Below are positions 8,317 through 40,736 of a stretch of DNA of 43,372 bases, piece by piece (positions within the stretch are counted from its first letter, which is position 1; each line of letters begins with the position of its first letter). The translations under genes and the position numbers were made by a program. The stretch comes from Escherichia phage ZCEC5: sequence record NC_073321.1. One strand, given 5' to 3'. The notes under the pieces were generated by a model, which was not told where the DNA came from, did no database searches, and saw only the letters and a program-made list of their open reading frames with translations.

Positions 8317-8342
8317 ACATACCTCCTGTCTAAGTTAACTGA

Positions 8343-8371
8343 ATAGTAGCCTATTATGCTGGGGTGCGCAA
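8343..8371 (-). promoter_or_regulatory. Class B promoter TTGCGC-17-TACTAT containing palindrome AATAGGCTACTATT
   Basis: Near-identical copies at 16926-16954 (-), 39509-39537 (+) and 40677-40705 (+). Confidence 0.5.
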
Positions 8372-16910: not shown

Positions 16911-16925
16911 TGTTGGTGTGAGTGA

Positions 16926-16954
16926 ATAGTACCCTATTATATTGGGGTGCGCAA
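16926..16954 (-). promoter_or_regulatory. Class B promoter TTGCGC-17-TACTAT driving the Imm/metallophosphoesterase island
   Basis: Shares 30/33 positions with the promoter at 8339-8371. Confidence 0.5.
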
Positions 16955-17019
16955 GTAATGTGATAGAATAATTTTGCGCCTAGTGTCGCACACGAAAAGC
17001 GGGTGGTTCCCGTCTGGCG

Positions 17020-33082: not shown

Positions 33083-33111
33083 ACTATAATAGCTAACTAT
33101 TCATGTGTCAA
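33083..33111 (-). promoter_or_regulatory. Class A promoter TTGACA-17-TATAGT with palindrome AATAGTTAGCTATT
   Basis: Consensus -35, 17-bp spacer carrying the palindrome. Confidence 0.55.
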
Positions 33112-35912: not shown

Positions 35913-35941
35913 ACTATAATAGCGAACTATTCACGTGTCAA
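35913..35941 (-). promoter_or_regulatory. Class A promoter TTGACA-17-TATAGT with palindrome AATAGCGAACTATT
   Basis: Divergent from the Cro-like gene promoter. Confidence 0.55.
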
Positions 35942-35945
35942 TGGG

Positions 35946-35975
35946 CTTTTCTGAAATAATTAATATGGTACTATT
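35946..35975 (+). promoter_or_regulatory. Candidate promoter/operator for the Cro-like gene
   Basis: -10 TACTAT at 35969-35974 inside imperfect palindrome AATATGGTACTATT; weak -35. Confidence 0.35.
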
Positions 35976-36005
35976 CACATATCAACTGACTAAGGAGTAA
36001 TTGAC

Positions 36006-36238: not shown

Positions 36239-38479
36239 CTACTCCAAATCCTCCTCTGTCACCACCAGCATTTCATTTGGTTCGTATATTGTCTTCGGTC
36301 TTAATCTGTCGCCCATCTTTTCCGGTATCCGGTATGTGCCTGGTATAACTTCACCGTTAACATCGCACCCAAGCATCAACTCCCCGTCTTTCAGCATCTT
36401 CTCAAGATGGTGGTTGGTGATGGCGTGGTCGCCCGAGTTCGCCACTATCTGCCGTTGGGTAAAACCTCGTCCGGTGTCGTCAGACTGTTGCAGGTCTTCC
36501 AGCGCGGCGAGTATTGATTCCTTACGCCCTTCATCCTTCCCACGTTTTACAGCATTCTTTACGTTTTCTTTACCTTCCTTTGTCAGCCCTTCTTCCCGCT
36601 CTTTCTCTTCGTCGGTCTTGAACGGCTCGAATCCCCACGGCATCAGCACAAGTGCCTTATGCGGCTCAGGAAGGTCCAGGTTTACGATTGTGCCGTACTC
36701 CTCTGTGCTACCCAGGAACTCAACCGCACGGTACTCTTTCGGCGGCGGGGCTTCACGGAACTGTACAGACTCGAGCACCATGCCAACCGTTTTCTGCTGA
36801 GGCCCGTGCTTAAATTTAGAGTGGTATACGTTTATTTGACGGTCGGTTGCACGTTCAATCGTCAGTTCCACGTCGACACCCGCATACAAGGCCCCGCTAC
36901 CACGGGCTTTCTTGCCACCCTTCGGCGTATGGTGGACAACACCTACTGCGGCTTTAGTTGCATCACGTACTTCTTTCAGGATGGCGATAACTTTACCCAT
37001 ACCGATTGCCGTTGATGAACTGTTCTCGTCGAACTTATCAATCGTCAGGGCCAGCGTCTGGTTAAGGGTGTCAAACGCGACCATGCCAATAGGTTCATCC
37101 CCTGCGGTTTCGCGCATTAGCTTAATCAGGCTTTTCAGTTTGCCGACGTCGCCCATATCGATTACATGTACATAATCTTTACCTTCCTCACCGTATTTAG
37201 CCGCGAGTGCATCGATACGTGTGCGTGTGGCCGCACCACCTTCACCGTCGATATAGAAGTGATGGCAACGCTGGGTGTCAGCCCCCGCAAACCGGTATCC
37301 TGCGGCGCTCAGGTACATCATCCCCAGCGTATAGAATGATTTGTACGTACCAGATTCACCGACAATATCCCAGATGCAGTCTGACGGCATGTAACCTTCA
37401 ACGACGAAATCAGCCTTTACCGGTTCTGGTAACTCGTCCTCCTCTGAGTCCTCGTCGTCTTCCAGGTCGTCGAGGCTGCATGAAACGGATTCACGTGCAC
37501 CCCAGCCGATTGCCTCAGCGACTTCACTGAACGGTAGCCCGGTCGCATCACACGCATACTTCCACACCTCCTTCGGCGACATGCCTTCGGTCGCCGTAAT
37601 GTCGGTGTCGTGAATCATGGTTACGTTAGGGGCTTCGTACCCCTCGCGTGGGAAGCACAGCAGGAAGTCGTCCGGGCGCGGGGTAGGGTCGCTGTAGTTT
37701 TCTGCGTGTTCTGGTGTAGCTGGCATCTTAAGGCCACGCGGCGTCATGATACCGCCGTACTCGAAAGCCAGTGCCTCGAACGCATCAGTAAACGCGGTGC
37801 GCAGTTCTTCTGGTATCTGGTAATCAGATGCGCTGCTCACCTCGTAATCCGGGATGTCTTCTAGCAGTTCCTCCGGGTCAATCAGGTCGTTGCGTCGTGA
37901 CCAGATAACCTGAGAGCCAACAGGCGGCAGATACATCGGCTGCGACAGAGTGAACCCGCTGCGGTCCGCACCCATGCCTTTGAAGAAGTGCTCAAGCAAG
38001 CCATGACGAACACGGATGATGTCACCGCCTTCAACCGGACGGCCCAGCGGCATAACGACGCGAAAGCGTGGGGACTCATCGGTATGTGACGCCGTGGTGT
38101 AAAGGCACATAGCCCTGCGGCTGCGCTTAACCAGGCGCACCGCTTCCTGATACTCTTCCGGCGTCGCACTGTCGAAGTCCAGATACGCCAGCGACGATTT
38201 GCTTACAGACGCATCGCAGCGGTAGAAGAAGCCTTTACGTGCTTGCTTAAAGTCTCCCGTTTCTGGGTCTTTTACGGTGCTGCGCGTAGCGTCACACGCG
38301 GCAGTGATATAGCCAGGCGCGGTCTTCGGGTTAATTCCGTCACGAACAACATCGAGCGGCTGGATTAAATCTTTCAGGTCGTCCAGTGTTGCCGTGTGTG
38401 TGGTTCTGACGTTTATATCCTTTTTCTCTGCCCGCGCGTTGCGACGGGACCACGAGTAGGATAAAATTACATCGGACAT
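36239..38479 (-). CDS. DNA primase / helicase (N-terminal primase-like domain fused to RecA-like ATPase)
   Basis: Walker A GESGTYKS and Walker B MVAFDTL in C-terminal half; 746 aa; replication-module context. Confidence 0.65.
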   Translation of the reverse strand: MSDVILSYSWSRRNARAEKKDINVRTTHTATLDDLKDLIQPLDVVRDGINPKTAPGYITAACDATRSTVKDPETGDFKQARKGFFYRCDASVSKSSLAYLDFDSATPEEYQEAVRLVKRSRRAMCLYTTASHTDESPRFRVVMPLGRPVEGGDIIRVRHGLLEHFFKGMGADRSGFTLSQPMYLPPVGSQVIWSRRNDLIDPEELLEDIPDYEVSSASDYQIPEELRTAFTDAFEALAFEYGGIMTPRGLKMPATPEHAENYSDPTPRPDDFLLCFPREGYEAPNVTMIHDTDITATEGMSPKEVWKYACDATGLPFSEVAEAIGWGARESVSCSLDDLEDDEDSEEDELPEPVKADFVVEGYMPSDCIWDIVGESGTYKSFYTLGMMYLSAAGYRFAGADTQRCHHFYIDGEGGAATRTRIDALAAKYGEEGKDYVHVIDMGDVGKLKSLIKLMRETAGDEPIGMVAFDTLNQTLALTIDKFDENSSSTAIGMGKVIAILKEVRDATKAAVGVVHHTPKGGKKARGSGALYAGVDVELTIERATDRQINVYHSKFKHGPQQKTVGMVLESVQFREAPPPKEYRAVEFLGSTEEYGTIVNLDLPEPHKALVLMPWGFEPFKTDEEKEREEGLTKEGKENVKNAVKRGKDEGRKESILAALEDLQQSDDTGRGFTQRQIVANSGDHAITNHHLEKMLKDGELMLGCDVNGEVIPGTYRIPEKMGDRLRPKTIYEPNEMLVVTEEDLE

Positions 38480-38771: not shown

Positions 38772-38938
38772 TTAACGTTCTCCTTAATCCACGCTTCCAC
38801 TTTCTCCGGGTCAAACGTACCAGGCTGCCGGCGGCCCATAATGCGGATACAACAATCTGGGAACTTCCCGCTCTTTAACCAGTTATTCAGTGTGCGACGA
38901 GTAACCCCGATACGCTCGGCTACCTCATTCTGCGTCAT
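38768..38938 (-). CDS. Small HTH DNA-binding protein (AlpA/excisionase-like)
   Basis: MTQNEVAERIGVTRRTLNNWLKSGKFP; ATG 38938 with RBS AAGGAG (ORF-track frame 38768..39016). Confidence 0.5.
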   Translation of the reverse strand: MTQNEVAERIGVTRRTLNNWLKSGKFPDCCIRIMGRRQPGTFDPEKVEAWIKENVK

Positions 38939-39077
38939 CTTTAATCTCCTTAATTGTTTCCCATGCGAACGCTGTAGCTGTGCCGTATTTATTAGGGCAG
39001 TATCTGCTCTCGCCATGTCCGTTAAACCACGCTTCTATCAGCAACTCTTTCAACTGTTCTTCTGTCAAAGTAACCAT
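38925..39077 (-). CDS. Hypothetical small protein (50 aa), first gene of leftward early operon
   Basis: ATG 39077 with RBS GAGGG; the ORF-track TTG start at 39110 overlaps the -10 hexamer. Confidence 0.4.
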   Translation of the reverse strand: MVTLTEEQLKELLIEAWFNGHGESRYCPNKYGTATAFAWETIKEIKDDAE

Positions 39078-39109
39078 TCTCAAACCCTCATTATCAGTTA
39101 ACGGAGACA

Positions 39110-39138
39110 AGTATACATTGCGAATAATGGGAAATCAA
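39110..39138 (-). promoter_or_regulatory. Leftward early promoter TTGATT-17-TATACT
   Basis: -10 TATACT at 39115-39110, -35 TTGATT at 39138-39133. Confidence 0.45.
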
Positions 39139-39153
39139 ACATAATCGCACCTA

Positions 39154-39182
39154 TTGACATTATGAAAATCTTCGTTTAAGGT
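39154..39182 (+). promoter_or_regulatory. Rightward candidate promoter TTGACA-17-TAAGGT
   Basis: Consensus -35; -10 similar to the 8461 hexamer; divergent from the leftward promoter. Confidence 0.3.
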
Positions 39183-39188
39183 GCTTCT

Positions 39189-39443
39189 ATATCTTAGTTA
39201 CTTTGATTCCTGTTCACCTTGTAAGAATGTTTAACCCGTGCGTCAAGCAAAGGGTTAAACACAGGCTTACTGAACATAAGAATTATAGTAACTTTCCTTC
39301 CTTAGTATCTCCAGTTGCCATGGGCAAGCTCTATTCTCATCGGCAGCATATCTCTTAAGTATCTGATTTTCTTAATGTGCCGTAGATTCGCAACCGTAAA
39401 AATGTAACGATTATTGGGCAGGCTTAAGGCCTGCCCTTTAGTT
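39189..39443 (+). ncRNA. Candidate ~250-nt noncoding RNA in the divergent control region
   Basis: No ORF; contains 9-bp perfect inverted repeat GTTTAACCC-N14-GGGTTAAAC (39229-39260); ends at an intrinsic terminator. Confidence 0.2.
39416..39443 (+). terminator. Intrinsic terminator in noncoding region
   Basis: GGGCAGGC-TTAAG-GCCTGCCC followed by TTTAGTT. Confidence 0.5.
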
Positions 39444-39508
39444 ACCAAGTAATAAGAATAAAGGCACAACCTTCCCTAAAGAATCACAACGGCAACGTAA
39501 CTAATCCC

Positions 39509-39537
39509 TTGCACACCCCAACATAATAGGATACTAT
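39509..39537 (+). promoter_or_regulatory. Class B promoter TTGCAC-17-TACTAT with palindrome AATAGGATACTATT
   Basis: CTTGCACACCCCAACATAATAGGATACTATTCA, near-identical to the 8339 and 16923 promoters. Confidence 0.55.
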
Positions 39538-39571
39538 TCACTTATCGAAACGAGACAGAGGAGTGAGAGTT

Positions 39572-40018
39572 ATGTTTAAGAAGGGTCAGTTGGTGAAAAC
39601 GAAACGCAGCGGACAATACGTATTAGTGTTGCGGGATGAGAACGAGCACGACAAGGATAATATAGTCGCCATATGGAGTCTGGTAAGAAAGAAAAATGGG
39701 TATACCTCACGTGATAATCTGAAACTCATCGGCAACAATTTTAAATTCAAAGGGGGCGGAGTGATGGAAGAATTAATTTGTATTGAATCCAGCCAGGATG
39801 TGCAGGATTGGTTTGTGAAAGGTAACAAATATTCGTCCGGAGTATATTACAACGGCCGTCGATATGTTTTAGACGAAGACGGTGATGAATGGGATTTAAA
39901 TGACGATGTAAGAGAAACTTTAACCGTTAGCAGGGTCAATGCTGTTTCTGCCTCATTCACAACGGCATCGAAACATGATGCTCGCGCCGCCGACTCTGAG
40001 GGAGGTTGCCGTGAATAA
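39572..40018 (+). CDS. Hypothetical protein (148 aa)
   Basis: RBS GAGGAG; first gene after class B promoter. Confidence 0.55.
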   Translation: MFKKGQLVKTKRSGQYVLVLRDENEHDKDNIVAIWSLVRKKNGYTSRDNLKLIGNNFKFKGGGVMEELICIESSQDVQDWFVKGNKYSSGVYYNGRRYVLDEDGDEWDLNDDVRETLTVSRVNAVSASFTTASKHDARAADSEGGCRE

Positions 40019-40676: not shown

Positions 40677-40705
40677 TTGCACACTAAGATAGAATAGGCT
40701 ACTAT
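40677..40705 (+). promoter_or_regulatory. Class B promoter TTGCAC-17-TACTAT with palindrome AATAGGCTACTATT
   Basis: Palindrome identical to the reverse complement of the 8342-8355 copy. Confidence 0.55.
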
Positions 40706-40736
40706 TCATTTACACAAACGAGAGGAGAGACAGAAG

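Follow-up and report, generated by a model that had tools for sequence, protein, structure and literature searches.

In the genome of Escherichia phage ZCEC5 (sequence record NC_073321.1), a complete Kagunavirus-like lytic siphophage genome (subfamily Guernseyvirinae) analysed here as one window of 43,372 nt, the gap that separates the two early operons very probably holds a real gene for a plus-strand noncoding RNA, at positions 39189-~39446. What decides this is comparison with relatives, not the signals in the single sequence: the comparison demonstrates that the predicted plus-strand RNA structure is under purifying selection, between a conserved predicted sigma-70-type promoter and a conserved hairpin terminator. 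Our preferred reading, in which this gene makes a riboregulator that base-pairs in trans, is given a probability of roughly 0.45 as a whole; action by trans base-pairing, scored on its own, is held only tentatively. The parts of the gene are these:

39154-39182, plus strand: P1, the predicted promoter of the noncoding RNA, read directly as TTGACA (39154-59), a 17-nt spacer and TAAGGT (39177-82).
39189-~39446, plus strand: the predicted RNA, ~255 nt, from the P1 start to the terminator.
39196-39293, plus strand: HP1, a 98-nt imperfect hairpin seen in minimum free energy (MFE) and centroid folds, with 37 model pairs in 6 helices.
39294-39313, plus strand: an unpaired pyrimidine-rich tract, UUCCUUCCUUAGUAUCUCCA, the linker between HP1 and HP2.
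39314-39347, plus strand: HP2, the second hairpin, GUUGCC...GGCAGC around UGGG/CUCA and AA/UU, 12 pairs, from the RNAalifold consensus.
39348-39415, plus strand: the tail, with a second copy of the UAAGUAUCU motif (direct repeat D2) and the junction ACUGAU...UGCCGUAG.
39416-39446, plus strand: the intrinsic terminator, GGGCAGGCU-UAA-GGCCUGCCC followed by UUUAGUUACC.

The gap is ~460-490 bp long and its GC content is 38.8%, against 50.7% for the genome. An earlier sequence-only reading of the window had described it as an AT-rich noncoding region with back-to-back promoters, a 9-bp perfect inverted repeat and an intrinsic terminator, and had suggested either a ~250-nt plus-strand small RNA or an origin-associated transcript. 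The base composition and the lack of any conserved open reading frame (ORF) agree with that description. Its leftward promoter (TTGATT-17-TATACT, 39110-39138) was recovered as a scan match at 9/12 positions, and its rightward one is P1, which is conserved in 25 group-A sequences (defined below) and is absent from the scan calls because its -10 element matches the consensus at only 3/6 positions; the predicted start of its transcript is A39189. The terminator, placed at 39416-39443, was likewise a scan match, with a stem at 39416-39436 (9 pairs, 7 of them G-C, and a 3-nt loop) followed by the T-rich TTTAGTTACC. The inverted repeat, placed at 39229-39260, exists, but it is 10 bp long (39228-37/39252-61, 100% complementary) and forms the tip of the 98-nt hairpin. 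The structure prediction that had been proposed as a check gives -76.5 kcal/mol and a significant z of -5.2 for 39189-39446, with HP1 as its 98-nt hairpin. The small RNA itself is well supported by the conserved P1, the covariation, the strand bias, the compensatory changes in the terminator and the lack of a conserved ORF, while the 98-nt hairpin, a separate downstream promoter (P2, 39508-41) and a family that spans the subfamily go beyond the earlier description. On this sequence alone, the scans returned 5 promoter-like sites where 3.2 were expected and 4 terminator-like sites where 2.6 were expected, neither above chance.

Relatives were collected as 44 IMG/VR loci, retrieved through the helix-turn-helix (HTH) protein of the leftward operon, together with 14 GenBank stretches (L numbers below are our labels for the sequences compared). 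Group A comprises ZCEC5, other E. coli phages and all sampled Salmonella phages, and has a common order: CCTATTGACAT-N16/17-TAAG(G/T)T, the long hairpin, the pyrimidine-rich tract, the second hairpin and the string CUUAAGUAUCUGA. In the 25 group-A sequences aligned at the promoter, P1 TTGACAT and TAAG(G/T)T are invariant in 25/25, including positions T1, A2 and T6 of the -10 element. A covariance model, R1, was built from eight E. coli-phage copies with the structure taken from their folds. It found exactly one match in each of 34/34 group-A sequences, always on the P1 strand, and no match in groups B and C or in the rest of the ZCEC5 genome.

Pair statistics were calculated for the 34 distinct group-A sequences in the model-fitted alignment, 1644 pair cells in all. 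Standard pairs fill 96.2% of the cells, and in 23/49 pairs both partners have changed. Covariation scores 0.400, compared with 0.164 ± 0.008 in shuffled controls, none of which (0/500) reached it, and with at most 0.095 when the partners were slid by 1-3 columns. HP1 has changes on both sides at 22/37 model pairs, with double changes at 10/10 pairs of its upper stem; its basal stem is AGUUACU/AGUAACU, a 4-nt bulge C(C/U)UU is conserved, and the apex differs among phages, with five unrelated-looking types plus one recombinant that all preserve the hairpin. In HP2, 95.6% of cells are paired and the changes (U-G<->C-G, U-A<->U-G, G-U<->A-U) are compatible only with a plus-strand RNA. The terminator pairing is maintained through C-G->U-A changes in four relatives (L019, L020, L029, L036) and an A-U->G·U change in L024. 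A MAFFT/RNAalifold run recovered the basal helices and HP2 independently; on the 34 sequences this approach underestimates covariation because indels put the two arms out of register.

The strand can be read from the pairs themselves. Cells with G·U number 134, spread over 8 positions; those with A·C, the counterpart of G·U on the opposite strand, number 17, of which 13 lie at one terminal pair. Pairing falls from 96.2% when the alignment is read as the plus strand to 89.1% when it is read as the minus strand. The excess of G·U over A·C indicates the plus strand, and the MFE hairpins are free of A·C 1x1 mismatches. Folding both strands by MFE proved uninformative as a strand test, the minus strand of the Salmonella phages taking a different, non-conserved fold. 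The same counts bear on whether the locus could work purely as DNA, with operators or palindromes for the HTH protein or for the neighbouring 77-aa protein (p77) around the two promoters, and with hairpins that are a by-product and no functional RNA. GTTAC/GTAAC half-sites do recur at five positions (39197, 39289, 39403, 39441 and 39497), GTAAC-N5-GTTAC spans the P1 start in the Salmonella phages, AGTWACT is enriched in the genome (11 matches, 4.3 expected), and the type of sequence at the locus follows the HTH variant. A palindrome in DNA would, however, tolerate neither G·U nor A·C, whereas here G·U is common and A·C rare; HP2 and the terminator pair on the plus strand only, compensatory changes extend across 98 nt, far beyond an operator, and indels are matched on both arms. 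We consider control at the DNA level alone very improbable.

A coding function is harder still to credit. It was considered that the locus might encode one or more small proteins, as suggested by three minus-strand coding sequences annotated there in GenBank: Bas73_0055 (L002 1656-1976), K2_046 (L183 461-616) and S4_00067 (L190 558-704), the last labelled 'DNA-binding protein'. ORFs of 22-116 aa do occur in individual phages, but a six-frame comparison of 17 phages found no ORF conserved in length, frame or start; most begin with TTG or GTG, 1-nt indels fall inside them, and at the ZCEC5 locus there is only a 55-aa TTG ORF, antisense through the terminator. Most annotators left the region empty, and the three annotated sequences are, by this comparison, probably spurious, non-conserved calls.

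A 701-bp query around the locus matched 369 phage records, from Escherichia Kagunavirus and Salmonella Jerseyvirus of the Guernseyvirinae, and gave no match in complete E. coli genomes. The 178-nt RNA core was found in 374 phage records (326 labelled Salmonella, ~45 Escherichia/Kagunavirus, and single records labelled Shigella, Klebsiella, Proteus and Pseudomonas), nearly all with nothing annotated at that position. Between ZCEC5 and the Salmonella phages the core is 81-86% identical, which puts it level with the HTH gene (86-88%) and far above p77 (68-70%) and the primase gene (67-69%). A metagenome scan with a degenerate 15-base pattern returned 120 chance matches and two phages already known, and IMG/VR pattern and GTDB scans gave nothing new except a contaminating Jerseyvirus contig. 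That contig (L191, NZ_JACVEL010000022.1) is a 19-kb Jerseyvirus scaffold in an assembly of Taishania pollutisoli (Bacteroidota), collinear with 32.7-41.7 kb of ZCEC5, and almost certainly reflects assembly contamination. Rfam 15, searched with the whole genome at gathering thresholds, gave 0 matches; the best sub-threshold match in 39100-39600 was Hrs12 (19.6 bits against a threshold of 70, E = 1.2), driven by the terminator. A literature search found no description of this RNA. As judged by these searches, the predicted RNA represents an undescribed family of structured noncoding RNA in the Guernseyvirinae; phage small RNAs as a kind are already known.

A pointer to function comes from the linker. 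It falls in the best-conserved block of the RNA (39287-39366, where E. coli and Salmonella phages are ~90% identical), it varies mainly by C<->U changes, and it is unpaired in every individual fold but that of ZCEC5 itself, where the MFE structure pairs five of its bases over a long range. A string within it, CCUUCCUUA, can form eight pairs, including one G·U, with UAAGGAGG. UCCUUA is the 3' terminus of 16S rRNA, which makes the tract anti-Shine-Dalgarno-like; CCUUCCUUA is one base away from the rRNA end CCUCCUUA. Since the tract is exposed, best conserved and anti-Shine-Dalgarno-like, and its C<->U variants would still pair with G, regulation at ribosome-binding regions is the mechanism that we favour. 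On infection, host RNA polymerase would start at P1 and stop at the terminator, making the RNA early, and the downstream genes would be driven separately from P2; the ~255-nt RNA would be released separately and act in trans. HP1 may stabilize it, or may serve as a protein-binding or RNase III handle. The working surface would be the pyrimidine tract UUCCUUCCUUAGUAUCUCC, with a second related copy, CUCUUAAGUAUCU, after HP2. By base-pairing with purine-rich stretches that resemble Shine-Dalgarno sequences, in mRNAs of the host or the phage, it would alter the translation or stability of those mRNAs. Less likely, the tract may instead be bound by a pyrimidine-binding protein.

Several results weigh against this reading. 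Exact complementarity of at least 10 nt to the rest of the phage genome was at chance level, and RNAduplex run against 98 phage start regions gave no clear outlier. A Kagunavirus transcriptome paper (K1B4) reports genes only. Because the pair alignment was fitted by the model to sequences that share ancestry, the pair counts make independent events look more numerous than they are. The -10 element of P1, with its three consensus matches, is weak; the pyrimidine tract is not strictly invariant. The U-tract of the terminator is short and interrupted (UUUAGUU), and Jersey-type phages have a different hairpin without a U-tract in its place. As for the type of small RNA, the marks sought for an Hfq-dependent one were a long U-run (~6 or more) after the terminator hairpin and a conserved seed with identified targets; the tail here is UUUAGUU and no target stood out, and the short U-tract argues against the classical Hfq-dependent type.

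Since the U-tract is short and interrupted, read-through into the rightward operon is possible, and this opens the way to a cis-acting leader, in which P1 transcripts run through a weak terminator and HP1 and HP2 act as a put/nut-like antitermination site, an attenuator, or an RNase III processing or stability hairpin. The RNA invariably points the same way as the early operon and lies immediately before it, and the poor U-tract, absent in Jersey-type phages, fits such a leader, as does a terminator-like site within the operon at 40404-25. The predicted fold of the read-through transcript is good (z = -4.5) and includes a long-range helix around the terminator in which UGCCGUAGAUUC (39378-39389) pairs with GAAUCACAACGGCA (39479-39494); this helix, however, shows no compensation and is broken in L013 and L021, and no antiterminator fold competing with the terminator is evident. 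The same two strings also mark joints of 3' modules exchanged between phages, and the 3' modules 2a/2b/2c of relatives join at the tail junction ACUGAU...UGCCGUAG. The 3' arm of HP2 resembles the 5' arm of the terminator (D3), so that the HP2 5' arm could pair there; no mutually exclusive fold was favoured, and this candidate attenuator is not supported. In the tail, UCUCUUAA at 39351-58 matches 7/8 bases of lambda boxA, CGCUCUUA. In a lambda nut site, boxB, a hairpin whose loop is 5 nt long and rich in purines, comes no more than ~10 nt after boxA; the string here has no boxB-like hairpin after it.

Two further features argue against the leader. The terminator stem is itself maintained by compensatory changes, and the operon has its own conserved promoter with a phage-specific motif:

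39508-39541, plus strand: P2, the promoter of the rightward early operon, TTGCAC-17-TACTAT with the palindromic motif ATAATAGGATACTATTCA; a conserved leader and ribosome-binding site run to 39571, and the whole lies outside the RNA.
8340-8357(-), 16923-16940(-), 33086-33103(+), 35916-35933(+), 35960-35977(+), 39523-39540(+) and 40691-40708(+): the 18-nt palindromic motif ATAATAGGnTACTATTCA.

The P2 module stands just upstream of the first rightward gene in all groups, downstream of every type of sequence found at the RNA locus, and its 34-nt unit recurs at 16922-16955. Its 18-nt core, ATAATAGGNTACTATTCA, contains an AATAG-N4-CTATT palindrome and is present in 7 copies in the genome (0 expected); it overlaps the -10 element of P2-type promoters and has the appearance of an operator for a dimeric phage regulator, or of a phage-specific promoter class. 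The motif is the repeated PHIRE 'phage promoter' consensus published for Kagunavirus fBC-Eco01 (PMC9825357). P1 lacks this palindrome, so P1 and P2 are probably under different control. By the layout of these predicted promoters the rightward genes are independent of P1, with P2 lying between the RNA terminator and the genes, and the cis-acting leader is, in our estimate, unlikely.

Other Kagunaviruses (groups B and C) carry at this locus an unrelated sequence of similar length, with GC-rich hairpins and its own promoter and terminator. Besides cassette A there are at least 4 non-homologous cassettes, B1, B2, B3 and C (L018, L022, L033, L017, L024 and relatives). Where P1 sits, the group-B cassettes, unrelated in sequence to A, have TTGACT-17-TAAGCT. 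Their plus-strand structure is likewise conserved, some pairs showing double changes and others being invariant G·U. A (CTCA)n microsatellite was observed in the group-B2 3' module, with ~7 units in L022 and ~4 in L025, L026, L031, L034 and L043. The cassette type changes together with the HTH variant and the small protein encoded next to it: p77 accompanies 24/24 group-A loci and is absent from 18/18 group-B and group-C loci. This may be mosaic-block linkage or may indicate a functional RNA-protein module.

Such variability is what a protein-binding decoy or sponge, directed for instance against a host defence or RNA-binding protein, might show, its hairpins and the motif UWAGUWWCY serving as sites and its variable apex and cassettes recording an arms race. 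The HP1 apex is wholly different between phages whose flanks are >95% identical, yet it is always paired, non-homologous structured cassettes share one locus, and the cassette type is linked to the HTH variant and p77, a linkage that may nevertheless be a plain mosaic block. TWAGTWWCY occurs at 39194-39202, 39302-39310, 39356-39364 and 39438-39446, so that 4/10 genome matches, all on the plus strand, fall inside the 258-nt RNA, but the motif was defined after inspecting the sequence; a variant lies at 39285-39293. The motif may be a protein site, on RNA or on DNA. No similarity was found to CRISPR repeats, ToxI-type repeats or any Rfam family, and we regard a decoy as distinctly unlikely. Mimicry of a CRISPR repeat in the manner of Racr was considered for the Salmonella-type apex and set aside; the apex resembles a type I-E repeat only loosely, and the E. 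coli types show no such resemblance. A broader and equally long shot is that the early-operon gap is a hot-swappable RNA slot, filled by unrelated structured RNAs that would act as host-takeover or counter-defence effectors, e.g. protein decoys or anti-Shine-Dalgarno-like translational modulators. It is based on near-identical phages with unrelated cassettes, each cassette having its own promoter and terminator and being inherited along with a matching HTH variant and a small protein (p77 for cassette A), and on the replacement of the HP1 apex between close relatives with the stem kept; if true, the slot would give lytic phages a new class of RNA weapon, one that diversifies.

The cassettes also bear on the suggestion of the sequence-only reading that the transcript is associated with an origin, which found little support. 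On that view, transcription from P1 would melt the AT-rich DNA or leave an R-loop at which replication starts, in the manner of T4 ori(uvsY), T7 phi1.1 or ColE1 RNA II; the adjoining operon encodes the primase-helicase, the region is AT-rich, the cumulative GC skew has its minimum at ~39 kb, and the ColE1 RNA II system also requires a folded RNA. The skew extremes (peak ~26 kb, minimum ~39 kb), however, lie exactly at the switches in gene orientation and so cannot alone locate origin or terminus. Cassettes A and B1 accompany ~97% identical primase-helicases, and cassette A is found also with primases only 61% identical; that cassette type does not track the primase-helicase argues against a specific origin, although an R-loop origin of a kind that needs no specific sequence is conceivable. 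No iterons or tandem repeats were found at the locus or elsewhere in the genome, and the RNA is rich in pyrimidines, whereas persistent hybrids are G-rich. A P4-type origin was rejected as well: TGTTCACC, the P4 type I iteron, occurs in HP1 but is not clustered (3 copies in the genome), and the helicase is AAA_25/RepA-like with no P4-alpha-type domain detected. An origin or primer transcript appears quite improbable.

The genes on either side of the gap are arranged as follows:

39138->39110, minus strand: PL, the leftward early promoter of the small ORF/HTH/p77/primase-helicase operon, outside the RNA.
Minus strand: the leftward operon, consisting of a 51-aa ORF, an HTH_17 protein, p77 and a 746-aa primase-helicase with an AAA_25 domain.
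36239-38479: the primase-helicase of the leftward operon, next to the RNA locus.
Plus strand: the rightward operon of small early genes, first ATG at 39572.

At PL, AGTATAC and GGGAAATCAA are kept in all group-A relatives. The 51-aa ORF (38925-39080, minus strand, phrog_20928) lies between the HTH gene and PL. Of the relatives examined, L003, L012 and phage EF2-1 alone have it; in most, no gene separates PL from the HTH gene. The first rightward ORF, 39572-40018, has 148 aa; residues 1-61 match one PHROG and residues 129-148 a different one, and the equivalent stretch of Bas73 is annotated as separate genes of ~63 aa, so that the ZCEC5 ORF is probably a fusion or a frameshift. Searches of the neighbouring proteins with Pfam and PHROGs gave no pointer to an RNA partner.

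Guernseyvirinae (Jerseyvirus, Kagunavirus) are among the phages most often isolated for biocontrol and therapy of Salmonella and E. coli, and in ~370 deposited genomes the ~460-bp gap is unannotated or filled with spurious ORFs; the covariance model lets annotators label the RNA region correctly. Few noncoding RNAs are known from strictly lytic phages, and the Guernseyvirinae RNA is thus a well-supported addition. A conserved structured RNA in the gap makes cheap, concrete experiments possible, and the unrelated RNA cassettes at one locus amount to a natural experiment on the role of such RNAs.

Comparison with known systems places the RNA near several of them. It resembles lambda nut and HK022 put in being a structured RNA after an early promoter and before a terminator and early genes, with the boxA-like string at 39351-58, but it has no boxB-type hairpin, its hairpins are 20 nt apart and not adjacent, and a separate promoter follows the terminator. 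With the ColE1 RNA II, T4 ori(uvsY)/ori(34) R-loop and T7 primary origins it shares a promoter beside replication genes, AT-richness and a folded transcript; unlike them, it lacks iterons and a G-rich tract that could form a hybrid, the scan detected no antisense partner promoter, and the content of the locus is exchangeable without change of the primase-helicase. In its length, its imperfect pairing, its internal loops and its place close to the 5' end of a predicted early transcript, HP1 recalls the RNase III processing hairpins of T7 early mRNA. The T7 hairpins separate the cistrons of a polycistronic message, whereas HP1 precedes a terminator and no cistron.

The C/U-rich RsaE/RoxS and the loops of S. 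aureus RNAIII mask Shine-Dalgarno sequences through UCCC motifs in hairpin loops, in Gram-positive bacteria. The tract here is a linker between two hairpins in an enterobacterial phage, and the likeness is that of an unpaired pyrimidine-rich tract, UUCCUUCCUUA, which should be able to pair with AAGGAGG-type ribosome-binding sites. Trans-acting small RNAs of phages and prophages include DicF of Qin, IpeX, lambda OOP, P22 sar and the Pseudomonas phage PAK_P3 small RNAs. From these the Guernseyvirinae RNA differs in having no sequence or Rfam relation to them, in being larger than most (~255 nt, with a 98-nt 5' hairpin), in being antisense to no gene, in belonging to a strictly lytic phage and in the lack of a target found. 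It is like them in being a short promoter-to-terminator unit in an early or regulatory region, with no ORF, a conserved fold and an exposed single-stranded tract.

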